Below are positions 22,898 to 62,007 of a stretch of 64,000 nucleotides of DNA, one piece after another. The translations under genes were made by a program, and so were the position numbers. The stretch covers positions 22,201 to 86,200 of the forward strand of contig CAZEAP010000010.1 in the NCBI GenBank assembly GCA_964510315.1, read 5' to 3'. This DNA comes from an uncultured candidatus Brocadiaceae bacterium. Its GTDB lineage: Bacteria > Planctomycetota > Brocadiia > SM23-32. Every line of letters begins with the position of its first letter. Position 1 is the first letter of the stretch. Below the pieces are notes generated by a model. The model saw only the letters and a list, made by a program, of their open reading frames with translations. It made no database searches and was not told the DNA's origin.

Positions 22898-22971
22898 TGA
22901 GGATTGGTGTAATGGTAACACGCCTGACTCTGGATCAGGTAATCCAGGTTCGAATCCTGGATCCTCAGCCA
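22898..22971 (+). tRNA. tRNA-Gln (anticodon CTG)
   Basis: Cloverleaf folded by hand: 7-bp acceptor tgaggat/atcctca, anticodon stem cctga/tcagg with loop ctCTGga, T-arm ccagg-ttcgaat-cctgg, discriminator G and encoded CCA. Confidence 0.85.
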
Positions 22972-22984
22972 TTTTCGAATTGGT

Positions 22985-23062
22985 GGCCCCATCGTCTAGC
23001 CCGGCCCAGGACGCCGGACTCTCATTCCGGTAACAGGGGTTCAAATCCCCTTGGGGCTACCA
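22985..23062 (+). tRNA. tRNA-Glu (anticodon CTC)
   Basis: Closely parallels E. coli tRNA-Glu (GTCTAG...GGTAACAGGGGTTCaAATCCCCT). Anticodon loop ctCTCat, acceptor ggcccca/tggggct (G1-U72), encoded CCA. Confidence 0.85.
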
Positions 23063-23603: not shown

Positions 23604-26600
23604 GTGAGCGGAGGAACGCAAGAATCAACCCAGGCTGAACGGACCTCTGGCATGTCCGGCCAGAAATCAACTTCTCCCGAAGCCGAATCGCTCTGCCCCT
23701 CGGGTGTTTCCCGTTCCACCGGGTTGTCCGTACCGGCACGGTCGGCGGTCTATGGCGCCTTCTTCCTCTCCGGCGCCACGGCGCTGACGTTCGAGATCCT
23801 GTGGAGCCGGCAGTTCGTGCCCATATTCGGGAACAGCTCCTATGCCATCAGCGCCGTGTTGTGCGCCTTTATGGCCGGACTGGGCGTGGGGAATTGGGCG
23901 GGAGGCGTTCTGGCGGACCGCGTCCGCCGGAGGCTGCTGTTGTTCGCCGGCATTGAGACCGGTATCGCCGCCTGGGCGCTCCTGATGCCCTGGCTGCTGG
24001 CCGGCCTCCGCCGTTACGTTCCCCGGACATCGCTGCTGGTCTCGGACTCCCTGGCAGTAACCAGCGCGACCCGCTTTGTGTTCTCGCTGGCCATCCTGCT
24101 GATCCCCTGCGCGCTTATGGGCATGACCCTGCCCTGCCTGAGCCGCTTTGCCACGGAATCCGGCAAGGTCCTGGGCAAACGGGTGGGATTGCTTTACGGG
24201 CTCAACACCGTCGGCGCCGCCCTGGGCTGTCTGGCGGCCGGATACCTGCTGCTGGACGCCCTCGGCACAGCGGCTACAAATTACATTGCGGTGGGAATCA
24301 ACCTTGTTGTGGCGGCCGCAATCGCCCTGCTCCAGATCAGGATCAGCCGCGGGGCGCGCCCCGCGGCAAAGGAGCCGGTCGCCGCAGCGCCCGCGCCGCC
24401 GGGAGTTCCGCGGACGCTGCTGTTAGGGCTGGCGTTTCTGGGCGGTCTGGCGGGGCTCGCCTGCGAGGTGTTGTGGCTGCGCTACATGTATTTCGTAACG
24501 AGCGTCGCTTATTCCTTCACCAACATCCTGGCGATCTTCCTTTTGGGCCTCGGGGCGGGCAGCCTTCTTTACCGGCTGCTGCTTTCGGAGACGAAGCGTC
24601 CGCTGCGAGCCCTGGGCGTGGTGGAGATACTGCTCGGCCTGTCGGTGCCTGTCTGTTTCGCCGCGGGTGCAAAACTCTACTCCTCGTGGTATCTGAGCCG
24701 AGGCCCGCTGCTCGCCACGAAGATGGCTCTGCTGACCATCTTCCTCCCTACGGTATTCATGGGAATGGCCTTTCCCCTGCTGTGCGCCGCCTATGGCCCG
24801 CGGCTCAGCAAGGTGGGCCGGACGGTGGGGGCCATAGCCGGCCTGAACACAGCCGGCTCGATTGTTGGTTCGCTTCTGCCCATTTTCGTGCTGCTGCCGT
24901 TGCTGGGAGTGCAGAACAGCCTGCTGCTTCTGGCTTCGATGTATCTGGTAGTGGGCTCCCTGGTGCTGGCGGTTTCAGTGCGGCAGGGCCGACTGCGGCG
25001 GGTCGGTGTGGTGGGGGCCAGCGCGCTGGTAGTCATCCTGATGCTGACGTGCTTTCCGGCCGGACTGTGCCGACAGGTGTTTCTGGCCACCTCTCCGGAG
25101 CTGGGCGCTCACACGGAGATAGCCTTCTGGAAGGAAGGCCGCACGGCGACATCGGTTGTGGTAAGGGACAAGGTGGACGGCCTGAAAAACCTGTATATCA
25201 ACGGTACCGAAGAGGTGCCCATGCACTTTCCCGGCATGTCGGCGCACAAGATGCTGGGGACCCTGGGCCCGCTGCTCCATCCGAATCCAGACCGCGTATT
25301 CCTGATATGTTTCGGCGGGGGCATCACTGCCGGAACCGTGGTGCAACACCCCGAGGTGAAGTCGCTGGAGGTGGTGGACCTGGAAACCACGGTCTTCGAA
25401 GCGGCCGGCCTGCTGGAGGAGGCGAACAACCGTGTCCTCAGCAACCCCAAGGTGACCACGGCCGTCGCAGACGGACGGAATTATGCGCTCAGGCGTTCCA
25501 AGAAATGGCCCGTAATCATCGCAGACTCGACTCACCCGAAGGGAACCGACAGTTGGGTGCTTTACACCCGCGAGTTCTACCGGCTGATGCAGCGACACCT
25601 GAGCGAGGACGGGGTGTTCGTGCAATGGCTGCCCATGGTGGACCTCAGCGTCAGTGAATTCAAGATCATTCTTCGCACGCTGCAGTCGGTGTTTCCCCAT
25701 ACCAGCGTCTGGCTGACCTGCGGTGCCGACAGCACCGCAGGCGTGCGAGGAGACACCTTCCTTGTGGCCACCCCGGAGCCGTTGCAAATCAATCTGGAGC
25801 AGTTGCGGGAGAAGCTGGCCGCCCCGGCGGTCGCTAAGGACCTGCGCCCATACGGCCTGGATCGACCCGCGGAGGTGCTGAACTGCTTACTGGCCGCCGG
25901 CGACGGATTGCGAGCCTGGGTCGGGGGAGGGCCCATAAACACCGACGACCTGCCCCTCACCTATTACGAGACCCGCTATTCGCGCGGTACGCAGTGTCGG
26001 CTGCCTCAACTGGCCGAGCTAATGCAGGGAGTAGGATCCTACCTGACGCACGCCGGTCCGCCCGACAGGTACGCAGAGCTGAAGCGGAAGCTGGAGCGCT
26101 ACCGCAAAGGCAAGAAGCGTTTCATGACGGGGGACCTCCGGAGTGCATTCGAGCTGCTGCCCGAAAGTCCGCGGTTCCAGCAATTCAGCAGGAATCTCCA
26201 GCGGAGCGTCGGTTACGTCCGCCGCGTCACCCGCTATTACCAGGACCATCCGCTGCTTCTCGCCTGGTGGGCGCAGCGAGTGATGAACTACCCCGCCGGA
26301 GACCGCCTCGCAATGGAACTCTACCGCCGCCTGGTGAAGCTACGCCCCCGCGACGTGGGCGCCCGGAACAATCTGGCCCTCCTCTTGCACCGGCGCGGCA
26401 GAACGAAGGAAGCCGCTCGCCAGCTTCGGACCGTGGTGAGGAACGGGAAGGCCACCGCCCAGACCTACAACAACCTCGGGCTGTTTCTGGCCTCCCTCGG
26501 CGAGAACGAAGAGGCCTACGCGAACTACCGCCGAGCCCTCGGCAAGGATCCCGAGTTCGCCGACGCGCACTACAATCTCGGCGCACTGGCGGAGCGAAGA

Positions 26601-26990
26601 GGGAATCTCCAGGCCGCCGTCGATCACTATCGTGCGGCCGTCCGCTACGACCCCACGTCAGTCCAGGCGCTGGTACGACTGAGCCAGGCCCTGATGGCAA
26701 AGGGAGAGCACTTTGTGGCCGCACAGTACCTGCACAAAGCCGTCGGACTTAGCCCGCACAGCGCGACCCTCCACTATGGCCTCGGAGTTGCGCTGCTGCG
26801 CCAGGGCCACGCCGAGGCGGCTATCGCCAGCCTCCAACGCGCCCTCCGGATCGCCCCCGAACGAGAGGCCGTAAAGCAAAAACTCGCGCAGGCCCGCGCA
26901 CTCGTCGAGAAGCATGCCTCCTCGGGTCCAGAAACTTCGCCCCCCCTCAACCCCGGAGCCGGGCCCGGCGAAAGCTCTGAGGCGCCTTGA
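23604..26990 (+). CDS. Fused polytopic membrane / spermidine-synthase-like (PABS) / TPR-repeat protein
   Basis: 1128 aa. N-terminal ~12 TM helices, then a SAM-MTase-like spermidine synthase fold (LICFGGGITAGTVVQHPEVKSLEVVDLE), then C-terminal TPR repeats. A candidate promoter TTTGCA-N17-TATATA lies about 100 nt upstream. Confidence 0.7.
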   Translation: MSGGTQESTQAERTSGMSGQKSTSPEAESLCPSGVSRSTGLSVPARSAVYGAFFLSGATALTFEILWSRQFVPIFGNSSYAISAVLCAFMAGLGVGNWAGGVLADRVRRRLLLFAGIETGIAAWALLMPWLLAGLRRYVPRTSLLVSDSLAVTSATRFVFSLAILLIPCALMGMTLPCLSRFATESGKVLGKRVGLLYGLNTVGAALGCLAAGYLLLDALGTAATNYIAVGINLVVAAAIALLQIRISRGARPAAKEPVAAAPAPPGVPRTLLLGLAFLGGLAGLACEVLWLRYMYFVTSVAYSFTNILAIFLLGLGAGSLLYRLLLSETKRPLRALGVVEILLGLSVPVCFAAGAKLYSSWYLSRGPLLATKMALLTIFLPTVFMGMAFPLLCAAYGPRLSKVGRTVGAIAGLNTAGSIVGSLLPIFVLLPLLGVQNSLLLLASMYLVVGSLVLAVSVRQGRLRRVGVVGASALVVILMLTCFPAGLCRQVFLATSPELGAHTEIAFWKEGRTATSVVVRDKVDGLKNLYINGTEEVPMHFPGMSAHKMLGTLGPLLHPNPDRVFLICFGGGITAGTVVQHPEVKSLEVVDLETTVFEAAGLLEEANNRVLSNPKVTTAVADGRNYALRRSKKWPVIIADSTHPKGTDSWVLYTREFYRLMQRHLSEDGVFVQWLPMVDLSVSEFKIILRTLQSVFPHTSVWLTCGADSTAGVRGDTFLVATPEPLQINLEQLREKLAAPAVAKDLRPYGLDRPAEVLNCLLAAGDGLRAWVGGGPINTDDLPLTYYETRYSRGTQCRLPQLAELMQGVGSYLTHAGPPDRYAELKRKLERYRKGKKRFMTGDLRSAFELLPESPRFQQFSRNLQRSVGYVRRVTRYYQDHPLLLAWWAQRVMNYPAGDRLAMELYRRLVKLRPRDVGARNNLALLLHRRGRTKEAARQLRTVVRNGKATAQTYNNLGLFLASLGENEEAYANYRRALGKDPEFADAHYNLGALAERRGNLQAAVDHYRAAVRYDPTSVQALVRLSQALMAKGEHFVAAQYLHKAVGLSPHSATLHYGLGVALLRQGHAEAAIASLQRALRIAPEREAVKQKLAQARALVEKHASSGPETSPPLNPGAGPGESSEAP

Positions 26991-28580: not shown

Positions 28581-28656
28581 GGGCGCATAGCTCAGTGGCG
28601 AGAGCGCTACCTTCACACGGTAGAAGTCGCAGGTTCGAGTCCTGCTGCGCCCACCA
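28581..28656 (+). tRNA. tRNA-Val (anticodon CAC)
   Basis: GGGCGCA-TA-GCTCAGTGGCGAGAGC-G-CTACCttCACacGGTAG-AAGTC-GCAGGTTCGAGTCCTGC-TGCGCCC-A-CCA. Canonical 76-nt cloverleaf. Confidence 0.9.
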
Positions 28657-31211: not shown

Positions 31212-32750
31212 CTACTCCGAGGTATCCCGCTGGAACATCCTGGGTGTTTCGGGAGACTCGGCGAGCATCTGGGCGCCGCGCCCCACCACGGCCTGAGACA
31301 CGATGCCCTCGACGGTGCTGCCGCTGCCGATGATGCTTTCACTGACGTGACCGTCGCGCACGACGGCACCCTCCATGATGATCGAGTCGCGGACGGTTGA
31401 GTTGCCAACACTTGCTCCGGGGCCGACGTACACGTGGGGCCCAACGCGGGCACTTTCCAGGACGGCCTCTTTGGCAATCTGCGCCGGTCCCTTGATATGG
31501 GTTTCCGAATCGTGTCTGCCTCTTCGAGAGTCAACGAGAAAATGCCGATTGGCGTCGAGAAGCTTCCTCCGGGTGCCGACGTCGAACCAGGGCTCGGTCG
31601 TCAGGTGACCGGCCAGCGGGACGCCGCTGACGACCAGCCAGTGCATGAAGCTGCCGAGGCTGTACGGATCGCCGCCACCCTTGAGGTACTTCGGCAGGGA
31701 GTCAACTTCCTCCTCACGTAGGAAGTAGCAGGCGGTGCTGATGTTCAGAAACGCGGGTATTTCCTGCTTCTCCGTGAACTCGCTCACCGTTTCGTCGGAA
31801 TCGAGGGTGGCTACGCCATACTGGCTGACGTCGCTGCCCGTCTCGAACCTGTAGAGGGCATTGGCGCTGGTACCCTTGCGAGCAGCAAAACGCAGGAACT
31901 CATCCAGTGCGAAGCTAAACACGTTATCTCCGCCCAAGACGACGACATCGCGAGGTCCCTGCAGATTCACCGCGTAGTGGAGCGCTCCTATAGGTCCAAG
32001 ATTTCCGCCGGAGTCGCTCACTGGCTCGGCAATCACCTCAGCGTCCTCGGTGCCCACACGCGTGAGAAACGCACGGATATCTTCCTGAAACTCTCGGTTG
32101 GTCAAAAGGTAAGTACGACGGACGGAGCTACAGTCCCGGATAAAATCCAGGACGTAACTGAGAACAGGTTTGCCGGCAACAGGCAGCAGAACCTTGCAGA
32201 AGTCCAGCGTCAGCGGCCACAGCCGGGAACCGGAACCGCCGCAAAGCACGATGCAGTCCACATCAGGCGGGCCCGAAGCGCGAATCTTCGGAAACGCTGC
32301 AACTATTTTGGCGCGCAAGTCGTCGGGCGTGGTGAAGAAGTTCACCGTCACACGCTCGGAGACCTTGTGTCGGAACGCCTTCTGATCCTGCCAACGGCCG
32401 TCCTCGATGAGCAGGTTGGCCGGAACAGGGAAGTCTTCTGCCGACAGAAGCATAAGACAGGGCTTGGACAGCTCTTGGGCTACCTCGAACTCCAGTTCAG
32501 TGAAGCTGATCTCGGTGCCCTTCGGGCTGCTGCCGTAGCACGGCCCCAGGAGGCCGACGAAGACGTCACAGTTCCCTATCTGCTCCCGACAGTAATCGGC
32601 CGGAGTTTGGTGGTCGACCGTGAAGTCCTCCATCCGAACGCAGTGATGGCCCATGGACTTGACGGCCTTCTCTGCCGCGTCGCGGTATGCCAACAGGTCT
32701 TTGGTAGTGGAGCTGAGGAACACGGTTTTGGGGTTGTTGTCTGCAGTCAT
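31212..32750 (-). CDS. DUF4062-domain / sugar-1-phosphate nucleotidyltransferase / left-handed beta-helix fusion protein
   Basis: N-terminus KTVFLSSTTKDLLAYRDAAEKAVKSMGHHCVRMEDF...CDVFVGLLGPCYGSSPKGTEISFTELEFEVAQEL matches the DUF4062 family (VFISSTxxDLxxER ... SYTELEY). Then an NTP_transferase core (LCGGSGSRLWPLT, GGDNVF, EKQEIP, WFDVGT), then hexapeptide repeats. ATG at 32750 with GGAGA RBS. Confidence 0.7.
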   Translation of the reverse strand: MTADNNPKTVFLSSTTKDLLAYRDAAEKAVKSMGHHCVRMEDFTVDHQTPADYCREQIGNCDVFVGLLGPCYGSSPKGTEISFTELEFEVAQELSKPCLMLLSAEDFPVPANLLIEDGRWQDQKAFRHKVSERVTVNFFTTPDDLRAKIVAAFPKIRASGPPDVDCIVLCGGSGSRLWPLTLDFCKVLLPVAGKPVLSYVLDFIRDCSSVRRTYLLTNREFQEDIRAFLTRVGTEDAEVIAEPVSDSGGNLGPIGALHYAVNLQGPRDVVVLGGDNVFSFALDEFLRFAARKGTSANALYRFETGSDVSQYGVATLDSDETVSEFTEKQEIPAFLNISTACYFLREEEVDSLPKYLKGGGDPYSLGSFMHWLVVSGVPLAGHLTTEPWFDVGTRRKLLDANRHFLVDSRRGRHDSETHIKGPAQIAKEAVLESARVGPHVYVGPGASVGNSTVRDSIIMEGAVVRDGHVSESIIGSGSTVEGIVSQAVVGRGAQMLAESPETPRMFQRDTSE

Positions 32751-32853
32751 GGCTTTTCTATCTCCGGTTGCCGATCCCTCAAAAATAAGCCCGGCTAAGC
32801 CGGCTCGCGACGCCACAATGATAGCAGGAAAGTCCGTCCCGGGAAACCGGGTC

Positions 32854-35433
32854 TCACAGCTTATACACCTCCAGGCCGGCTTCTCCGAGTACTTCCGGCC
32901 AGTCCCGGACTGCCTGGCGGTCGTATTCTTTGATCTTCTCGGGTAGTTCCTCCCAGGGGACGAGATAGGGACTCACTTTGACTTTGGCGTCGCGTCGCGG
33001 ACCGTAGCTCCACCCCGCGCGGAGCCTTTCGAGAATCCAGCGCCCGTGCTCCATCTCGGCCATGGTTTCCACTTCCTCGTCGGTGAACTGCACGGAGGCG
33101 GGCTCGCCCTCGGCCTCCCCCACGCCGTATCCGATGCGGCGGAGCGTCTGCTCGGCGTAGGCGGCCTGCTGGCGGTTGGACTCTTTCAGGTCCTCGCGCA
33201 GTTCCTGCCACGGCACCATCGCCGGATCGGCACTGCGGTAGCGGTTCTCCTCCAGGAACCGCTCGTGTACGGCCTTGCCCGCCCTTTCGACCAACTCGGC
33301 GGGTATCTGCGGTGTGGCGGGATTGACGAACGCCCGAACCGCCGCCGGGTCGGGGGGCAGCCAGATCAGCCGGGAGGCCGGCCACCAGCGGCGTTCCTCT
33401 CGCAGTTCCGAAGCGCTGCGACCGCTGGACTCCACCACACCCACTGTGGCGCCGAGGGCGAGGGCCAGCCGCGCCTCAAAGCCCGTGATGGGACCGCCGT
33501 TGATCACCAGCACGCGCACGTCGGCGGGGTCGACGCCGGCCGCGATCAGGTCAATCCAGGACTGCAGCGGTTCGAGGGCGGTGAAGTCCCGCGTGTGAGG
33601 CTCCGCCCTTCCCCTTCCCATGTCGGTCGTCACCTGCACCTCGTATCCCTCGTGCAGCTTCACCTCGTCGGGGAGCGGCGGCATGAAGAAGGGCCGGTAG
33701 CCTATGCGCCGCACCTCGTCGGCCGGTCCTTCGGTGGCATCGGCGGCCAGGCCGCTGACCCCGGCCGTGGTGCCGCCACCGACGACGATGCCCCGGAACC
33801 CCTCAAACGCTTCCCGCAGCATTTCGCGGTATTGCTGCATCTCCTGTTCAACGCTGGCCGCACAGCCGCCGCTGACCATCGCGACATCGCCACTGACCGG
33901 GCTGAGGTCCGCCGATACCAGGCCCTCCAGCTCCTCCGTCCGCTCCCGTACCTCGCCGGGCATCTGTTTCTCACGCTCCGGCTCACCGCTGGCCTCCCGG
34001 CCGGCCGCCGTGACAACCACGGCAAGCAGCAGGAATCGGCGCACCGCTTCGATCGCCCAGTTCAGGTCCGCGAACGCGGGCATTTCAGGCAGCGACCGAA
34101 GGATGGGTTTCTCATAGTGCTCGACCGAGCGGAGCGCCAGGCAGATGGGCGTCGGGCTCGCACTGAGTTCGATACCCCGCGCGTAGGCGGCAAGCGCCTG
34201 GTAAGGACGGTCCAGCAGCAGGGCGAATGTCCCCATGTCGTAGAAGGCCCAGGGCAGGTAGATCTCTACCTCGGCCCAGTCCCGGCAGGTCTCCACGGCC
34301 GCCTCGAGGCTGGGGCGCATCAGCGAGATGAACTCGACGTCGCCTACGAAACCGGTCTTACACTCCAGATAGTTCGCCAGCACGTGAGCGTCACCGGGGG
34401 CGGCCTCGAAGGCGCGTTCGTAGTAGTGTAGGGCTTTTTCCGGCTCCTCCTCCCAGGTGTCCCCCAGCGCGCAGAGGGCGTCGGCATCGGTGGGGTCCAG
34501 CGCGACCGCGCGTTCCAGCTCGGCCCGGCCGCCTTCGCCGGCCTGATGTTTGGCCAGGCCGAGGTCCCGCAGGACGGGCGCGGAGCCGGAGTGACGGAAC
34601 GGCTCCAGGACTTCCATCGCCTTCTGCCAGTCTTCAAGCGAGATGGCGAGGGCGGCGATTCGGTCCGCAAGGTCCGAGTTTTCCCGGTCGTAGCGGAGCA
34701 CCATCTCCCACTTGGCTATCTCTTTGCGCATCTCCTCAGGGTCCATGTAAGCGCCGTAGTGGGATTTGTAGGCGTCCAGGGCCTCGACCGCTCGTCCGAA
34801 CTGGCCGTCCGCGTCCTCCAGGAGCGCAGCGACACGCGCCAGTTCGCGCCGGAACCTGTCCGGCACGTCGAACTCGCTCTTGTAGACCCTGTCGTGGCTG
34901 ATGCCCGCCCAGGCGTGTTGCAGGAGGGTTCGCACCTGGATCTCCGCCTTGCGTTCGCCGATCCGTTCCAGCACGTCGATCCCGCCCTTCCGGCGGCTCA
35001 CCTCCTCGATAGCCTCTTCCAGGCAGGGCCTGTCGCCGCGAAGCTGCACGACGTAATGCACGGAACGATAGCCAAACTCCTCCGGCCGCAGCCTCCGGAG
35101 CACGTCCATGCTGTTGGCTTCATCGATCCGAAAGTTCTCCCGGACGAACCGGCAGATTCGCCGGACTTCCGGCTGCGTCTGGGTGATGACGCGGGCGCCG
35201 CACAGATCGGTCATCTGGGAGACCGGGGCGCTGTAGCGGTCGCTTCTGCGGACGATCTTCTCGGCGAAGCTGGGTATGCTCTTGGCGCGGGTCTGCACGA
35301 TGCCGACCGTCTCGCAGTCCTTGCAGGCGCGGGTAAGGGCCTCCGAGAGCACATCGGCGTAGAGCACGTAACGGGGCCGCTCTTCGGAGTACCTTTCCAC
35401 CTGCCTCTCATGTTCTACCGGGTCTACAGGCAT
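32854..35433 (-). CDS. RelA/SpoT-domain (alarmone-synthetase-like) protein with TPR, LOG/SLOG-like and C-terminal RyR domains
   Basis: 859 aa, no HD hydrolase domain. N-terminal synthetase motifs TRAKSIPSFAEKIVRR, TDLCGARVI, GYRSVHYVV and EIQVRTLLQHAWAGISHDRVYK. Central TPR-like helices. A Rossmann-like region VVGGGTTAGVSGLAA...INGGPITGFEARL fits the LOG/SLOG GGGxxG / PGGxGTxxE pattern. C-terminus EHGRWILERLRAGWSYGPRRDAKVKVSPYLVPWEELPEKIKEYDRQAV matches the RyR domain (GWSYG). ATG at 35433 with GGGAG RBS. Confidence 0.7.
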   Translation of the reverse strand: MPVDPVEHERQVERYSEERPRYVLYADVLSEALTRACKDCETVGIVQTRAKSIPSFAEKIVRRSDRYSAPVSQMTDLCGARVITQTQPEVRRICRFVRENFRIDEANSMDVLRRLRPEEFGYRSVHYVVQLRGDRPCLEEAIEEVSRRKGGIDVLERIGERKAEIQVRTLLQHAWAGISHDRVYKSEFDVPDRFRRELARVAALLEDADGQFGRAVEALDAYKSHYGAYMDPEEMRKEIAKWEMVLRYDRENSDLADRIAALAISLEDWQKAMEVLEPFRHSGSAPVLRDLGLAKHQAGEGGRAELERAVALDPTDADALCALGDTWEEEPEKALHYYERAFEAAPGDAHVLANYLECKTGFVGDVEFISLMRPSLEAAVETCRDWAEVEIYLPWAFYDMGTFALLLDRPYQALAAYARGIELSASPTPICLALRSVEHYEKPILRSLPEMPAFADLNWAIEAVRRFLLLAVVVTAAGREASGEPEREKQMPGEVRERTEELEGLVSADLSPVSGDVAMVSGGCAASVEQEMQQYREMLREAFEGFRGIVVGGGTTAGVSGLAADATEGPADEVRRIGYRPFFMPPLPDEVKLHEGYEVQVTTDMGRGRAEPHTRDFTALEPLQSWIDLIAAGVDPADVRVLVINGGPITGFEARLALALGATVGVVESSGRSASELREERRWWPASRLIWLPPDPAAVRAFVNPATPQIPAELVERAGKAVHERFLEENRYRSADPAMVPWQELREDLKESNRQQAAYAEQTLRRIGYGVGEAEGEPASVQFTDEEVETMAEMEHGRWILERLRAGWSYGPRRDAKVKVSPYLVPWEELPEKIKEYDRQAVRDWPEVLGEAGLEVYKL

Positions 35434-35795: not shown

Positions 35796-36494
35796 TTACA
35801 TGGCCTCGTAAAGAACGTCCACGTGCCCATTTTGAGATGCCTCTGCCACCTCGTCCACGGCGCCCCTGTACTGCGCCAGCTTGGAGCCGCCGAAGATGCG
35901 AAACAGGACGGCGGCAAGATTGTGGTGTGTTTCGATCACAGCGTCCGGGAAATGGGATTCGCGGAGCGAGTTTTGGACGTAGAAGGCGTGGCTCTCCAGC
36001 AGCGTCATCACCGGCTGGACGGCTTGCACTTTGGCCAGGGCCTCCCGGGGGGAGCCGCCTCCTTCCGAAAGGAGGGCGGAGGCCTGCCGAATCGCCTCGT
36101 CCACGCGTTCGAATAGATTCCCGTGGTTGACGTGCTGGCCCCGGTGCACCAGTTCGTGGGCGACCACCAGTCGCAGTCCGTTCAGATTGCTCTCGTCCAC
36201 GTTCTCGCGGACCACCAGCAGCTCCGCGCTGCTGGGCTCGTATGCGGCCAGCGCATTGTTCTCCACCACGTATTCAAGCAGTCGCTCCAGCAGGCCGCGT
36301 CCGGTGTCTTCGACCGGAACCCCCGCCCCCCGCAGCCTCCCGAGTACAAGTTCCTCATAGCCCCGGTCTTTCGGGAGGACGCGCTCGCCCATGTCGTCTG
36401 CGTAAATGGCCCACTCGGTGGCTTCCTCGACCAGTGGGGCGACTTGTTCGGCCAGGCGACTCACAAGCTTTTCGGTGATGTTGATTTGGGCCAT
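35796..36494 (-). CDS. HExxH-motif putative zinc metallopeptidase
   Basis: VVAHELVHRGQH zinc-binding motif; ATG at 36494 with GGAGGA RBS. The track's longer N-terminus, starting at 36587, is unlikely. Confidence 0.5.
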   Translation of the reverse strand: MAQINITEKLVSRLAEQVAPLVEEATEWAIYADDMGERVLPKDRGYEELVLGRLRGAGVPVEDTGRGLLERLLEYVVENNALAAYEPSSAELLVVRENVDESNLNGLRLVVAHELVHRGQHVNHGNLFERVDEAIRQASALLSEGGGSPREALAKVQAVQPVMTLLESHAFYVQNSLRESHFPDAVIETHHNLAAVLFRIFGGSKLAQYRGAVDEVAEASQNGHVDVLYEAM

Positions 36495-36528
36495 TTGCTT
36501 CCTCCGCCGTGTCGGCGGGTTCGAGGTC

Positions 36529-38481
36529 TCAGAATGCGGGCACGGCGCCGCGGGTGACGGTCCGGACCAGCGTGGAGATTCCACCAACTGACGCCTCGGC
36601 GACGATAAGGGCTATGAAGAAGTAGCGCGCCTGACGCAGTTTCCCCCCGCCGAACAGCTTCATGATTCCCATCTTGCAGAGCCATCCCAGCAAGAAGGGG
36701 AACCATAACCTGTGGGCGTGCCAGCTATGGCACGACAGCAGGCCGATGGCGTGAATCGGCCACCAGTAGAACCGGGCGCGCATGTACATAAAGAACGTCA
36801 TGCCGCCGGCCCCCAGCAGCAGCGACTTGGGGTATGCCTTGGCGGCCGCGGAGCCCTGCTTTATGATGCGCTGAGCCGAGTCCATGCGCCACTTCGGTTC
36901 CGCAGTCTGCGCCCACCAGTCCGAATAGTTCGCGCCCCCCATGCGGTAGGCCGTGTTCAGGGAGGTCCACGTCCCGCAGAGAAGCGCCACCAGGAAGGCC
37001 ACCATCAGGATGGGGACGAGGAGACGACGTTTGGCGGGCTTGAAAACGTCGGAGATGCGGAAGGCGTTGATGGCCATGGGCGCCAGGTAGGCGGTGCCGC
37101 CGGTGATCAGCAGAGGGTCCTGAAGATTCGTGATGACCGCCCCGGCCGGTCCCAGCGCCCGGCCTCCCGTTATGCCATGGATGAATTCCGGCAGGCGCCA
37201 GGTCGTCCTCGCCACGTAGAGTCCCGCCTGGGCGACCACGCGCGCGTAAACCAGGTACCAACAGATGATCATCGCGAAGGCGGCAACCGCCGCCGGCCAC
37301 CGCATGCCGTGGTAGGCATACCATCCGAGGCATGCCCCCAGCGTGACGAGAGAACCCCAGAACCCCAGGCGGTAGCCGACCGGCTCACCGCTGTCGTCGG
37401 CGTCCTTCAGGCCGAGGGCCTTCCGCAGCACCACCCACAGGTGCCGGCGGGCCATGAACAGTATTCCGGCGGTGAAAGCGATGTAAGCGCCGGCCTGCTG
37501 CCAACGCATCAGCGGTTTGCGCAGATGCCCCAGCCCCAGGTAGTGGGCCGTCTGCAGTTCCATCCTGGCGACCAGGTAGAAGACCCAGATGCTCAGCGAG
37601 ACGTCGGCGGGCACAAGGAACGCGAAGCCCACCGCGGAGGTCCACAGGTTGAAGTTCTGAAAACCCATCGGCTCCAGGGGCGTTCCCGCCAGCGCGTCCT
37701 TTATCGGGAGGGGGATATGGAACGCGGGACCGGCGCCGAAGATGACGGGCAGCGCCCTGATGAAACGGAAGCTGAGCGCGAAGACCAGCCCGACGATGAA
37801 GCCCTTCTGGGTGAACGCGGCGGGAAGCCAGCGGCGTTCCGCGCTGCCCTGGGTGAACTCCAGGGGCACGCGGGCCAGTGGAAACATCAGTCGCTCCGAC
37901 TCCACCCACTGCCGGCGCAGGATTCCCATCAGGAAGAAGATGAACAGGTACAGGGCGATGAAGAAGACGCCCCAGTGGATCAGCGGTCGCATCCAGCGTC
38001 CCCACGGCACCCGCTCCCATCCGCCCTTGAAATAGCGGGCGGCCGCCACGGAGCGCGGGTCGTTGCTCAACACCAGCTCTTCGGGCGCGTGGGTCAGCGC
38101 GCCGTCGTCCTCCCAGGCGACGTCCGCGCGCCGGGCGAGATACGACGGAGCCGCCGTAAAGGAAAACCAGAAGCGGGCCAGCCCGTCGCCCGGGAACGTG
38201 GCTCCGACGATCAGCATGCACCAGACCAGCATCAACTCCGCCTGGCTCAGCTCCCAGCCGCGTCGGACCAGCTTGATCAGGAGGTTCACTCCCACCGTCA
38301 GTATGACCAGCACGAGCACTGCCCCGCCGGGGAAGGCCGTCCCGCTGAAACCGCCCCATCCCTTGGCCCAGCTCACCCAGGGCTCGAGCAGTGCTATGCC
38401 CGCCACGAAGAAAAGGCCGATGAGGAAGGCCCGCCAGGTCACGATGCGCTCCGCGATTTGTGGTGGATCGTCCGGGGTCAA
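36529..38481 (-). CDS. Large polytopic membrane protein of unknown function
   Basis: 650 aa and more than 12 predicted TM helices by hydrophobic-segment inspection. No recognisable catalytic motif. Confidence 0.55.
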   Translation of the reverse strand: MTPDDPPQIAERIVTWRAFLIGLFFVAGIALLEPWVSWAKGWGGFSGTAFPGGAVLVLVILTVGVNLLIKLVRRGWELSQAELMLVWCMLIVGATFPGDGLARFWFSFTAAPSYLARRADVAWEDDGALTHAPEELVLSNDPRSVAAARYFKGGWERVPWGRWMRPLIHWGVFFIALYLFIFFLMGILRRQWVESERLMFPLARVPLEFTQGSAERRWLPAAFTQKGFIVGLVFALSFRFIRALPVIFGAGPAFHIPLPIKDALAGTPLEPMGFQNFNLWTSAVGFAFLVPADVSLSIWVFYLVARMELQTAHYLGLGHLRKPLMRWQQAGAYIAFTAGILFMARRHLWVVLRKALGLKDADDSGEPVGYRLGFWGSLVTLGACLGWYAYHGMRWPAAVAAFAMIICWYLVYARVVAQAGLYVARTTWRLPEFIHGITGGRALGPAGAVITNLQDPLLITGGTAYLAPMAINAFRISDVFKPAKRRLLVPILMVAFLVALLCGTWTSLNTAYRMGGANYSDWWAQTAEPKWRMDSAQRIIKQGSAAAKAYPKSLLLGAGGMTFFMYMRARFYWWPIHAIGLLSCHSWHAHRLWFPFLLGWLCKMGIMKLFGGGKLRQARYFFIALIVAEASVGGISTLVRTVTRGAVPAF

Positions 38482-38655: not shown

Positions 38656-38883
38656 ATGGAGGAATGGGAGAGGGAGTATCGATGCCTGGGAAGATCAGGC
38701 TTGCAGGTCAGCGCCGTATCGCCGGGTTCCCGGCGCACGTTCGGGCAGCGAGTGGACGACGCGACGACGCGGCGGTGCATGGAACTCGCCGTCGAGGACA
38801 ACGTGCAGGCCGTGGAGGTCGTCGAGCAGCTCACCGAGGAAGTGCTGGCCCGAATCGAGGATATCCTCGGCAACAAGCCCTGA
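38656..38883 (+). pseudogene. Internally deleted aldo/keto reductase (Kv-beta/Tas-like) remnant
   Basis: 75 aa: EYRCLGRSGLQVSAVSPGSRRTFG...ELAVEDNV resembles an AKR N-terminus and ...LTEEVLARIEDILGNKP an AKR C-terminus; the ~250-aa catalytic barrel between them is missing. Confidence 0.55.
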
Positions 38884-39520
38884 CGCCCCGCCGGGAGTCC
38901 GCGGAAAGCGTGACAGCGTGAGATCGCGAGACCGAATCCTCTGCACGCTGCGGCACAGCGAAGATGTCCGGGAAGGTATGGCACATCCAGGCGCCGCTGT
39001 CGTCCTGCCCGGAGTCGTCGTAGACCCGCACTTTTGATAGCAGTCTGTCTCGCACCTCGTCCGGGTAACGTTCATCGATATCCCACAGGGCCTGGGCCAG
39101 GGTGTTGGAGCCGGCGTTGACGGCGAAGTGCACAGGGCGTGCATCGTCTGCCTGTAGGGCTCTGATGATCAGCTCGGAGCCGGCCGTGCTCTTGCCGGTC
39201 CCAACCGCCTTCATTCCGTAACCGCGCTGTCCGCCGGCGGTGCGCTCCAGCAGATGCTCTCGGGTGGGCCAACCCGGTGCGTGCTGCAGCAGGTTAGGGC
39301 GAACCACGCCGTATGCCTCAACTCGGTCAGCGATGGATTCCGGATAGACCGTGTTGGGCAGCCAGCACGATGTCACGGCGATCAGACCTTCGATTTCGAG
39401 TTCATTGGCGTACATCAGCAGGTGAACCATGGTCTGCGAATCGTCGGGTTCGTTCTCCATGTCTGTCAGGATAATGAGACGGTAACGCTGTTTGGGTTTG
39501 CCTTTGGAAAGGAATCTCAT
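38831..39520 (-). CDS. DUF1593 (nucleoside-hydrolase-like, Sde182-type) domain protein, probably C-terminally truncated
   Basis: ILTDMENEPDDSQTMVHLLMYANELEIEGLIAVTS matches the NH-like domain of DUF1593 proteins. ATG at 39520 with AAGGAGG RBS. The C-terminal ~40 aa look like frame noise and overlap the AKR remnant. Confidence 0.5.
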   Translation of the reverse strand: MRFLSKGKPKQRYRLIILTDMENEPDDSQTMVHLLMYANELEIEGLIAVTSCWLPNTVYPESIADRVEAYGVVRPNLLQHAPGWPTREHLLERTAGGQRGYGMKAVGTGKSTAGSELIIRALQADDARPVHFAVNAGSNTLAQALWDIDERYPDEVRDRLLSKVRVYDDSGQDDSGAWMCHTFPDIFAVPQRAEDSVSRSHAVTLSADSRRGVRACCRGYPRFGPALPR

Positions 39521-40023
39521 AGGACCTCCTTGTTCCCGAGCAGTATCGAAGGGGCAACAGATGAGAGCCGTGCGCTTAGGCAAAGCCCCGCGCATCGTAT
39601 ACTGCGGCAATCTCGAAAGACAAGCGTAGCCATTCACGGGCTTTCTGAGAATCTGCCCTCCGCCGTTGCGTATGCTGTCGGGCATGGCACCAAAGACTCC
39701 TACAGCCGAATGCCCGAACTGCAAACGGTTTGCAGGCCGCGTGGCCCAACTGGAGGTGCTCGTGCTGAAGCTCCAGGGCCGTATCGTGGAGGTCGAGGCA
39801 AAAACCGCCCGGTGCCCGGCACGGCAAGAAGCGTTGCATGGGCGGCCAGCCCGGTCATCGTCGCCACGAGCGCCCGTCTTTTCCGCCCGAACAGATCGAC
39901 CAGACGCGGCGGTATCGGCTGGAGCGGTGTCCCCGCTACGGCGGGCCGCTGCAGAGGTCCTGGGAGCGGCCCCCTGCGTCCGGCAGGTCGAGCTAACCGA
40001 CTCGAATTCAGCGGAGGAATCCC

Positions 40024-61249: not shown

Positions 61250-62007
61250 GCCTTCTCACCCCTGCCGGAGAAACCGAACGGAGCACACATTATAAAACGA
61301 GACCGTGCCGCTGCAATCGCCCACATGTCCGAGTTGCTCCCACTTTTGATCGCCGGCCTCTCCACTCGCCCCACCCTTTGCGCCACGGTACGCGTTTACC
61401 GTGGACGCTTTGGGAGTTGTGCCTGTTCGACAGCGGCAATCGGCCGTCGCCACGCGGTCCACTGCTCGGCATCCGGCCGCCGGGCTCTATAAGAGCCCGA
61501 CATACCAGCCCAGGGCGCAGCCCTGGGAGAAATCGGCAATAAACCAACGAGCCCTGGAAGGGCGTGACATATTCGTTCAGGTTGACAGACATCTCGCCAT
61601 GTACCGGACGAGGCCTGGCTGCCCCGCGTATGTCTCGCCCCTACAGGGCTCAACCATTTTGGAGGCACGCCCAGGTCCCCAGGGCTACGCCCCGGGCTGG
61701 TATGTAACGCCCCTGCGGGGCTGCGGCGTGCCGTGTGCAGGAGGCGGCGCACTCCCTCGAAAGCTGCTCAATCGATGATCCGCGAAACGGCAAAGCCGCC
61801 GATTTGGACCCTTGCTGTCGCTCGGCACGGTAAACGCGTACGCGCCACGGTCTGGAGGGTCCTGGCGGGGGCCGGACGGGGAGCCCGCAAAACCGCGGCT
61901 ACCCAGCCCCAAAAAGGGCCGGCGGCCCGTGAGGTTGGCGAGCCGGCGGGCATGAAGTAGAATGAACGGCGTCTCGTCCCCTCATTCCCCAGGAAAACGA
62001 GGAGTGT

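Follow-up and report, generated by a model that had tools for sequence, protein, structure and literature searches.

A predicted alarmone synthetase joined to TPR, SLOG, and RyR domains in an uncultured Brocadiaceae bacterium

Analysis of a 64,000-nucleotide stretch of DNA from an uncultured candidatus Brocadiaceae bacterium (contig CAZEAP010000010.1, positions 22,201 to 86,200; the whole stretch is referred to here as the window) revealed a gene whose product carries a RelA/SpoT-type alarmone synthetase domain at its N terminus and SLOG-like and RyR domains toward its C terminus (Table 1). SLOG and RyR folds bind adenine-derived nucleotides in other proteins. This locus, referred to below as the main gene, raises the question of whether an intact alarmone synthetase has been placed under the control of small-molecule sensors and, if so, which signal these sensors would read. 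Judged from its sequence, the main gene encodes an intact (p)ppGpp-type alarmone synthetase joined to a TPR scaffold, a TRPM2-like SLOG domain, and a pair of RyR repeats.

Gene and overall architecture

Because of the G+C content of the window (65%), long spurious open reading frames (ORFs) are common in it; the strand opposite the main gene, for example, also holds an ORF of 461 codons. A protein search with the main-gene product revealed an identical protein (P0001) in a public collection. More than 120 full-length homologs of 820 to 970 residues were found, with 38 to 53% identity over 98 to 100% of the length. These homologs indicate that the minus-strand ORF is a real gene and not a chance ORF of high-G+C DNA. 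The reading frame proposed in the initial annotation, which had been made from the nucleotide sequence without database searches, was thus confirmed, and the two motifs that it singled out, TDLCGARVI and EIQVRT, correspond to residues 75 to 83 and 164 to 169, respectively.

An AlphaFold2 model of the protein was generated from a 72-sequence alignment (mean predicted local distance difference test score [pLDDT], 91.8; predicted template modeling score [pTM], 0.86). It comprises an alpha/beta domain (residues 1 to 230), an all-helical region (residues 232 to 503), a Rossmann-like alpha/beta domain (residues 516 to 703), and a helical two-repeat C-terminal domain. The three domains named in the initial annotation, a RelA/SpoT N terminus, a SLOG-like middle, and a RyR C terminus, were supported by Pfam, fold, and family matches, whereas a TPR solenoid of about 270 residues had been overlooked. 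No description of the RelA/SpoT-TPR-SLOG-RyR architecture was found in the literature searched, and an earlier computational listing may exist. The 2015 comparative-genomics paper by Burroughs et al. in NAR, which reportedly defined SLOG, LSDAT, and TPR-S, might list it; this paper and the one published by Burroughs and Aravind in J Bacteriol in 2020 are the likeliest catalogs.

Synthetase domain

The Pfam RelA_SpoT model matched the N-terminal part of the protein with 64.4 bits (cutoff, 27 bits; E value, 1.4e-17). In the 72-sequence alignment, residues R49, K51, K59, D76, R81, F120, Y122, H126, E164, Q166, H173, W175, and K185 are invariant. They belong to the RxKxxxSxxxK, DxxGxR, GYxSxH, EIQxRT, and WA..H..YK motifs, which align column by column with those of the RelQ-type structures 2BE3 and 3L9D. 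In these motifs, the Asp of DxxGxR binds Mg2+, the Tyr of GYxSxH stacks against the acceptor, and EIQxRT supplies Glu and Gln. Degeneration of the catalytic residues, a possibility raised in the initial annotation, was not observed, D76, R81, Y122, H126, E164, and Q166 being among the residues kept in all 72 homologs. By motif position, D76 and Y122 correspond to D90 and Y128 of FaRel2, which are essential, their substitution abolishing activity. Since the catalytic motifs are invariant and align with those of RelQ-type small alarmone synthetases (SAS), the synthetase is very probably active.

A profile of residues 1 to 235 searched against the Protein Data Bank (PDB) retrieved RelQ and RelP SAS (E values of 6e-20 to 1e-12), CapRel (1e-4), and long Rel/RelA enzymes (0.02 to 0.1). 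A Foldseek search with the N-terminal domain gave target-normalized TM-scores of 0.73 to 0.82 to RelP and RelQ crystal structures. These sequence comparisons indicate that the protein truly belongs to the synthetase superfamily of RelA/SpoT homologs (RSH), and the RelQ/RelP ancestry favors (p)ppGpp as the predicted product. According to the literature, no sequence signature discriminates nucleotide-using from tRNA-using synthetases, so that (p)ppGpp synthesis, (p)ppApp synthesis, and tRNA pyrophosphorylation cannot be separated on the basis of sequence alone.

Relatives of the synthetase domain were also found in (pro)phage-like viral contigs (L091 to L099). They are 34 to 44% identical to the N-terminal domain of the window protein and belong to proteins of about 360 to 380 residues with a C-terminal domain (CTD) of about 170 residues. 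The layout of these viral SAS-CTD proteins is CapRel-like, yet in the PDB they are nearer RelQ/RelP than CapRel. Both they and the window protein match the PADLOC candidate family PDC-S33 over the synthetase part only. Phage carriage of the full-length family was considered and rejected, the viral contigs holding relatives of the synthetase domain only.

TPR, SLOG, and RyR domains

Several Pfam TPR families matched residues ~260 to 360, together with a weak match to TPR-S, and Foldseek searches of the PDB with the middle region retrieved TPR proteins (OGT, SPY, and designed CTPR). In the SLOG region that follows, Gly-rich loops and further residues are conserved (G522, G553-G554-T555, G646-G647, E653, and S670-G671). 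The Pfam LSDAT_prok model matched residues 638 to 679 of the window protein with 20 bits in the whole protein and 25.1 bits in the isolated region, against a cutoff of 25.4 bits. The same model matched 18 of 20 family members at an E value of ≤0.01 (best, 5e-10), and the homologs P0374 and P0362 exceeded the cutoff. Fold comparison of the SLOG region gave scores of 15.7 for the LOG-like protein TM1055, 14.5 for the TRPM2 chanzyme (190 residues aligned), and 13.5 for TRPM2 MHR1/2. Lower scores were obtained for TRPM5, TRPM7, TRPM8, LOG enzymes, and DprA (11 to 13) and for the ThsA SLOG domain with 3'cADPR (9.5). Based on this comparison and on the family-level Pfam matches, residues 506 to 705 are assigned to the Rossmannoid SLOG domains of the LSDAT/TRPM type. 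A sequence profile of the region retrieved nothing significant from the PDB and revealed no sequence-level similarity to TRPM proteins, so the link to TRPM rests on the fold and the Pfam model.

The Pfam RyR model matched the C-terminal region in two stretches with 65 bits (cutoff, 27.4 bits; E value, 7.5e-18), the best stretch covering residues 786 to 855. A phmmer search of structures retrieved RyR1, RyR2, RyR3, and bacterial RyR-domain structures with E values down to 1e-20; residues 789 to 856 give good alignments both to the repeats of RyR1/2/3 and to 3NRT, a structure from Bacteroides thetaiotaomicron. Among the Foldseek matches of the C terminus were RyR3 Repeat12 crystal structures, several of them in complex with ATP, ADP, or AMP-PCP, and the model of this region is a pseudosymmetric two-repeat domain. 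The protein is a member of the RyR-domain family (PF02026).

Distribution of the family

When a single genome from each of 185,579 species was scanned, relatives of the main gene were found at 517 loci in more than 15 bacterial and archaeal phyla. The closest match to the window protein, with 50% identity, came from a Thermoplasmata archaeon. The best 80 of the 517 loci all belong to metagenome-assembled genomes (MAGs). The bacteria among them represent Chloroflexota, Planctomycetota, Verrucomicrobiota, Bacteroidota, Acidobacteriota, Actinomycetota, Gemmatimonadota, Desulfobacterota, Nitrospirota, Armatimonadota, and several candidate phyla, and the archaea represent Thermoplasmata, Bathyarchaeia, Halobacteriota, Methanobacterium, and Methanoregulaceae. 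A search of 1.84 billion representative proteins with a profile of the SLOG region alone gave 1,072 matches at an E value of ≤1e-3 and 666 at ≤1e-30. Among the best 150 matches, the proteins of ~820 to 1,080 residues carry the SLOG domain ~475 to 720 residues from the N terminus, as does the main protein, and many of the shorter ones resemble fragments. The family is small, tight, and patchy, as is typical of an accessory function that moves horizontally. Archaea and bacteria of the Planctomycetes-Verrucomicrobia-Chlamydiae (PVC) group mostly lack canonical RSH enzymes, so a classical or housekeeping stringent-response role is unlikely in these organisms.

Variant architectures were found in a few homologs. 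P0326 and P0374 have the order NUDIX-RelA_SpoT-TPR-LSDAT_prok-RyR, and in P0327 the SLOG domain of the family is combined with an 8xMP membrane domain. P0313 and P0320 consist of TPR-SLOG-RyR without a synthetase and may be split genes or fragments. In P0361, a fragment of an EF-Tu GTPase is joined to TPR-SLOG, probably in a chimeric or truncated gene call.

Gene neighborhoods of the relatives

The neighborhoods of the best 80 loci were compared by clustering of their ORFs and with home-made hidden Markov models for Nudix, DUF4062, TIR, and RyR; Pfam searches served as a check on representatives, and public gene calls as a check on nine loci. A MutT-like Nudix protein of 130 to 150 residues is present at 49 of the 80 loci and is encoded adjacent to the main gene on the same strand at 39, often with an overlap of 4 or 22 nucleotides. 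TIR-domain proteins occur at 23 loci and DUF4062 proteins at 16; one or the other is present at 34 loci and directly adjacent at 14, and a Nudix protein occurs together with TIR or DUF4062 at 24. The TIR and DUF4062 neighbors are mostly giant nucleotide-binding leucine-rich repeat (NLR)-like proteins with NACHT or STAND ATPases and WD40 or TPR repeats, and some bear FG-GAP or pentapeptide repeats. The gene orders include DUF4062-NACHT-WD40 > NUDIX > main gene (L086), NUDIX > main gene > NACHT (L104, an Altiarchaeales archaeon), DUF4062-STAND-TPR > main gene (L105), NUDIX > main gene > ClpB-like AAA > YbjN > TIR-pentapeptide (L087), and main gene > TrkA_N-RyR (L106). In L001, the closest relative, as well as in L004, L030, L066, and L079, the gene directly downstream of the main gene encodes a DUF4062 protein.

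The natural fusion of Nudix and synthetase in P0326 and P0374 is strong evidence that the two act in one pathway. The Nudix partners are nearer MutT, NudG, and NudI than ADP-ribose pyrophosphatases, with all NCBIfam scores below the curated cutoffs, and they match the PADLOC candidate PDC-S07. A proline ~16 residues past the Nudix box, which we take to be a signature of ADP-ribose pyrophosphatases, is found in many partners; it is too weak a criterion and was not used.

Two further kinds of RyR protein recur near the main gene, together at ~20 of the 80 loci. TrkA_N-RyR membrane proteins of ~600 residues, with N-terminal transmembrane helices and a C-terminal RyR domain, are encoded at ~18 of the 80 loci, sometimes as the very next gene. 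Their TrkA_N domain is RCK-like, and they may be channel-like effectors that use the same RyR sensor. The AAA-RyR proteins (~850 to 900 residues) bear their RyR domain at the C terminus and combine it with an AAA-type P-loop ATPase and an N-terminal domain without assignment. No SLOG paralogs with other effectors were found among the related loci. One TIR neighbor weakly matches ThsB1 of PADLOC (E value, 3e-5).

The downstream DUF4062 gene in the window

Directly downstream of the main gene, the window encodes a protein that combines DUF4062 (Pfam E value, 4.9e-22; 78.4 bits; cutoff, 24.7 bits) with an NTP_transferase domain (E value, 2.3e-27) and a left-handed beta-helix. This is a recurrent, undescribed architecture. 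The DUF4062-NTP_transferase fusion recurs in ~16 full-length homologs with 38 to 56% identity. In 15 fusion homologs, E87 of the SFTELE[YF] motif is invariant, the window protein having E-F where the consensus is E-Y, and the nucleotidyltransferase motifs are intact. Elsewhere, the sugar-nucleotidyltransferase-like module is fused to TIR or CHAT heads; such head swapping is typical of conflict proteins. The downstream protein is a probable functional partner of the main gene and is the sole nearby candidate for a signal generator in the window, in which the DUF4062 (TIR-like) gene adjacent to the main gene is present and a canonical TIR gene is not. DUF4062 has been reported to act as a TIR-like NADase with ADP-ribose as its product (preprint 10.64898/2026.05.01.722283). 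In the 2026 preprints on DUF4062, one of which describes the E-Y motif, partners with RelA/SpoT, SLOG, RyR, or Nudix domains go unmentioned.

The fusion itself was rejected as a conserved partner: no homolog of it was found at the 80 related loci, and three homologs elsewhere have unrelated neighbors. Since the fusion homologs elsewhere are not linked to the main-gene family, the association holds at the level of the DUF4062/TIR domain and not of this particular protein.

Comparison with known systems

The main protein shares its catalytic fold and all synthetase motifs with the RelQ/RelP SAS and with the toxic SAS (toxSAS) FaRel, FaRel2, CapRel, and Tas1. As in toxSAS, members of the family are usually paired with an antagonist-like gene, and relatives occur in prophage-like contigs. 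However, toxSAS are single-domain or SAS-CTD proteins, whereas the main protein has 859 residues, of which ~620 belong to TPR, SLOG, and RyR. The match to CapRel is weak (see above), and the partner of the family is a Nudix protein, antitoxin-like only by analogy, and not a small alarmone hydrolase (SAH) or proteinaceous antitoxin. Neither a Nudix nor an SAH nor a small antitoxin-like partner was found in the window. As a multidomain protein without an antitoxin-like partner in the window, the main protein is not a described toxSAS.

In Thoeris, a TIR signal generator (ThsB) is combined with an effector that carries a SLOG sensor (ThsA). The SLOG domain of the main protein is assigned to the LSDAT/TRPM clade and not to that of ThsA/YpsA, and its effector is an alarmone synthetase in place of the SIR2 or transmembrane domain of ThsA. 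Unlike the small ThsB, the TIR-like partners of the family are mostly large NLR-like STAND proteins or DUF4062 proteins, and its Nudix and RyR components have no counterpart in Thoeris. The PADLOC models of ThsA and ThsB matched no gene of the window. With a SLOG domain of another clade and no match to the ThsA model, the main protein is not a Thoeris ThsA. By analogy, it would resemble both systems in outline, with a toxSAS-like output and Thoeris-like sensing.

TRPM2 is an ADP-ribose-gated channel with an N-terminal SLOG domain (MHR1-2) and a C-terminal NUDT9-H Nudix domain. The pairing of an LSDAT-type SLOG domain with Nudix in the family mirrors this arrangement, whereas the output of the main protein is an enzyme and not an ion channel, and the Nudix partners are MutT/NudG-like rather than ADP-ribose pyrophosphatase-like. 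With Repeat1-2 of the ryanodine receptors and with bacterial RyR proteins (3NRT), the main protein shares a clear Pfam RyR match and the two-repeat fold; here, however, the RyR domain is the C-terminal module of a soluble enzyme. For the neighbors, as distinct from the main gene itself, the closest known counterparts are the DUF4062 anti-phage NADases Swarozyc, Evangelion, and NIR and the NLR-like TIR-STAND defense proteins. The downstream gene and many neighbors at the related loci have a DUF4062 domain that includes the Glu conserved in the E-Y motif. The version in the window differs from those studied in being fused to a sugar-nucleotidyltransferase-like domain and not to AUX or STAND modules.

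Proposed mechanism and rival explanations

The reading that we favor, at roughly even chances of being correct, is that the main protein is the effector of an immunity module, in which an NAD-derived nucleotide gates the synthetase via the SLOG domain, the RyR domain, or both, an alarmone burst arrests growth, and Nudix serves as a safety valve. A TIR-like NADase, switched on by infection or stress, would release ADP-ribose or a derivative. This or another NAD-derived nucleotide would bind the SLOG and/or RyR domain, and binding would lift an autoinhibition exerted through the TPR scaffold. ADP-ribose is the simplest candidate for the trigger because it is the product of DUF4062 and the ligand of TRPM2. 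The synthetase would then move pyrophosphate from ATP to the 3'-OH of GTP or GDP and yield (p)ppGpp, with ATP (giving (p)ppApp) or the CCA end of tRNA as less likely acceptors, and the alarmone output would bring growth to arrest. Nudix would most likely destroy leaked product and thus keep the system off at rest; alternatively, it would erase the trigger. Two precedents speak for a role as product hydrolase, the toxicity of SAS enzymes when no hydrolase accompanies them and the breakdown of ppGpp by a Nudix enzyme of Thermus. In the fusion proteins, the Nudix domain immediately precedes the synthetase on its N-terminal side, the position that the hydrolase domain has in long Rel enzymes. The sensor-effector logic of the initial annotation fits the data, but the term "self-contained" does not hold across the family, given the Nudix proteins at 49 of the 80 loci (fused to the synthetase in P0326 and P0374) and TIR or DUF4062 proteins at 34.

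Several observations weigh against this reading. No biochemical or genetic data on any family member were found in the literature searched. At 21 of the 80 loci, several of them on short contigs, none of Nudix, TIR, and DUF4062 is present, and the 64-kb window has no Nudix gene. Since none of the Nudix partners, all below every curated cutoff, is best matched to the ADP-ribose pyrophosphatases, the identity of the trigger is wholly inferred. Because its LOG-like Gly loops and an invariant Glu are retained, the SLOG domain could be an enzyme instead of a sensor. The best solved relatives of the synthetase are the housekeeping enzymes RelQ and RelP and not toxSAS. In the window, a weak terminator-like hairpin parts the main gene from the DUF4062 gene; with no more such sites in the region than expected from shuffling, it is no more than a hint that the two may be transcribed separately. 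Homologs of the DUF4062 fusion in three other contigs stand alone in unrelated contexts, not adjacent to RelA-SLOG-RyR genes. The surrounding genes of the window are housekeeping genes and do not form a defense island.

As a first rival explanation, the protein would be a stand-alone, physiological, metabolite-sensing (p)ppGpp synthetase that reads nucleotide or NAD status through SLOG and RyR, takes the place of long Rel/SpoT in stress adaptation together with its Nudix partner, and has no part in immunity. Nudix would then be the alarmone hydrolase, and the TIR and DUF4062 neighbors would reflect shared NAD metabolism or chance colocation in variable regions. The kinship with housekeeping RelQ/RelP and the housekeeping context in the window fit such a role, as do the Nudix-synthetase fusion, which mimics the hydrolase-synthetase layout of long RSH enzymes, and the MutT/NudG-like partners, a Nudix being known to degrade ppGpp. 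PVC bacteria and archaea without a long RSH might need a substitute, and the full-length architecture is kept at 38 to 53% identity without the hypervariability typical of immune sensors. We nevertheless regard this explanation as unlikely. The occurrence in 517 of 185,579 species genomes, patchy over distant phyla, suggests horizontal transfer; at 34 of the 80 loci, NLR-like STAND proteins with a TIR or DUF4062 head lie nearby, a strong and repeated adjacency; in P0327, this SLOG domain occurs as a fusion with a membrane domain; and the protein resembles prophage-borne SAS-CTD proteins and PADLOC candidate families. The last resemblance, with 34 to 44% identity of the N-terminal domain to prophage or viral proteins of CapRel-like layout, also speaks for a CapRel-like toxin, in which the TPR region recognizes a phage or other foreign protein and frees the synthetase to pyrophosphorylate the CCA end of tRNA or to make (p)ppApp, with SLOG and RyR only tuning it to the levels of ATP or GTP. 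TPR arrays are common protein sensors, the region weakly matches the Pfam "TPR-Sensor" family, and no sequence signature excludes a tRNA substrate. Such a toxin is improbable here, the TPR region being well conserved and not hypervariable and CapRel itself a distant match (E value, 1e-4); a trigger that is only a protein would leave the invariant SLOG and RyR domains and the nucleotide-related gene partners unexplained.

The main protein might instead generate a signal. The synthetase, perhaps together with a catalytic, LOG-like SLOG domain, would make a pyrophosphorylated nucleotide, which the RyR domains would sense both in cis, as feedback, and in the TrkA_N-RyR and AAA-RyR effectors; in a variant of this proposal, the neighboring NADases would supply the acceptor in the form of their product, ADP-ribose. 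The recurrence of TrkA_N-RyR proteins (~18 of the 80 loci, sometimes encoded by the next gene) and AAA-RyR proteins (L011, L028, and L075) nearby, the binding of adenine nucleotides by RyR Repeat12, and the two Gly-rich loops and invariant Glu that the SLOG domain retains, as in LOG enzymes, are compatible with this role. It is distinctly unlikely in view of the ~60 of the 80 loci without a second RyR protein, the window also having none, and of the lack of any conserved SLOG paralog or other receptor among the related loci. Moreover, RyR domains in common would fit equally well if these proteins jointly listened to one upstream signal.

Implications

Were the NAD-gated synthetase confirmed, it would be the first case in which a SLOG or RyR sensor of small molecules controls an alarmone synthetase. 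It would join TIR/NAD+-derived signaling and toxSAS/alarmone growth arrest, two major themes of bacterial immunity which have so far been studied apart, and the bacterial RyR domain would gain a function that can be tested. Such a synthetase would also provide a prokaryotic context uniting the ligand modules of TRPM2 (SLOG and Nudix) and of ryanodine receptors, with a bearing on the long-standing question of the sites and manner of ADP-ribose and cyclic ADP-ribose (cADPR) action in these channels. The family offers ~670 representatives and natural Nudix fusions as candidates for biochemistry; the members found so far come from uncultured organisms.

A wider possibility, tentative and rather doubtful, is that the family is the hub of an undescribed three-part pathway of NAD-derived immune signaling, in which NLR-like TIR and DUF4062 NADases make the signal, SLOG and RyR read it, and Nudix resets it. 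The outputs could be alarmone synthesis and, in sister proteins, a channel-like TrkA_N-RyR protein, an AAA-RyR ATPase, or an 8xMP membrane protein. Two animal Ca2+ channels are tied to NAD-derived messengers, TRPM2 through SLOG and Nudix and the cADPR-responsive RyR through RyR repeats. If the pathway exists, the RyR repeat would be an ancestral sensor of (c)ADP-ribose or adenine nucleotides, and the ligand-binding modules of TRPM2 and RyR would have been inherited from one bacterial conflict system. A more radical version would have the synthetase pyrophosphorylate ADP-ribose itself.

Other features of the window

The ORF directly upstream of the main gene, a doubtful member of the system, matched no Pfam or PADLOC model. 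A homolog with 48% identity was found at 1 of the 80 loci (L085, 16168-16872, minus strand; a Brocadiaceae MAG), where, near the main-gene homolog, it has a TIR-STAND-TPR gene on one side and a TrkA_N-RyR gene on the other. Otherwise the window has the makeup of an ordinary chromosomal region, with three tRNA genes and genes for glycosyltransferases, homoserine dehydrogenase, phosphoglycerate mutase, a GH57 branching enzyme, MsrA, and a creatininase-family protein. A mobile element at the tRNA-Val gene was considered and rejected, neither att-like direct repeats nor an integrase being found in the window.

Table 1. Coordinates of the main gene, its domains, and other features of the window, and of RyR proteins at related loci
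Feature	Location	Coordinates	Strand	Remarks
Main gene (RelA/SpoT-TPR-SLOG-RyR protein)	Window	32854..35433	-	Complete ORF, ATG start, 859 residues, stop codon 32854-32856
Small-alarmone-synthetase (RelA/SpoT nucleotidyltransferase) domain with flanking helices	Main protein, residues 1-235	34729..35433	-	Pfam core, residues 48-187 (34873-35292)
TPR-type all-helical solenoid	Main protein, residues 236-505	33919..34728	-	Between synthetase and SLOG; Pfam TPR, model, Foldseek
SLOG domain, LSDAT (TRPM N-terminal) type, assigned	Main protein, residues 506-705	33319..33918	-	Family Pfam matches, fold comparison
Tandem RyR repeats, Repeat1-2-like domain	Main protein, residues 706-859	32857..33318	-	Pfam RyR, phmmer, Foldseek
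DUF4062-NTP_transferase-left-handed beta-helix gene	Window	31212..32750	-	512 residues, ATG at 32750; directly downstream of main gene
DUF4062 domain	Downstream gene	~32478-32723	-
NTP_transferase domain	Downstream gene	~31542-32252	-
Left-handed beta-helix	Downstream gene	~31299-31421	-
Weak terminator-like hairpin	Window	32781..32803	-	5-bp GC stem and T-run; consensus scan; within 103-bp gap between main and DUF4062 genes
Upstream ORF	Window	35796..36587	-	263 residues, TTG start; directly upstream of main gene
tRNA-Gln(CTG)/tRNA-Glu(CTC) pair	Window	22898-23062	+
tRNA-Val(CAC)	Window	28581-28656	+	~4 kb from locus
TrkA_N-RyR protein	L005	9870-11714
TrkA_N-RyR protein	L106	10721-12478
TrkA_N-RyR protein	L085	16907-18781
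AAA-RyR protein	L011	2951-5596
AAA-RyR protein	L028	2218-4776	-
AAA-RyR protein	L075	4844-7591

Just upstream of the locus, the window encodes a large DUF6785/DUF6784 protein (36529-38481, minus strand) and an Sde182 nucleoside-hydrolase-like protein (38831-39724, minus strand). An ORF of 1,128 residues (23604-26990, plus strand) combines a spermine/spermidine-synthase-like domain (residues 547 to 705) with a long C-terminal TPR array. The Rfam motif Acido-Lenti-1 RNA, which together with bacterial-type genes suggests a bacterium and by itself hints at one like Acidobacteriota or Lentisphaerota, was matched at 61678-61722 on the plus strand with 41.6 bits, against a gathering score of 37.

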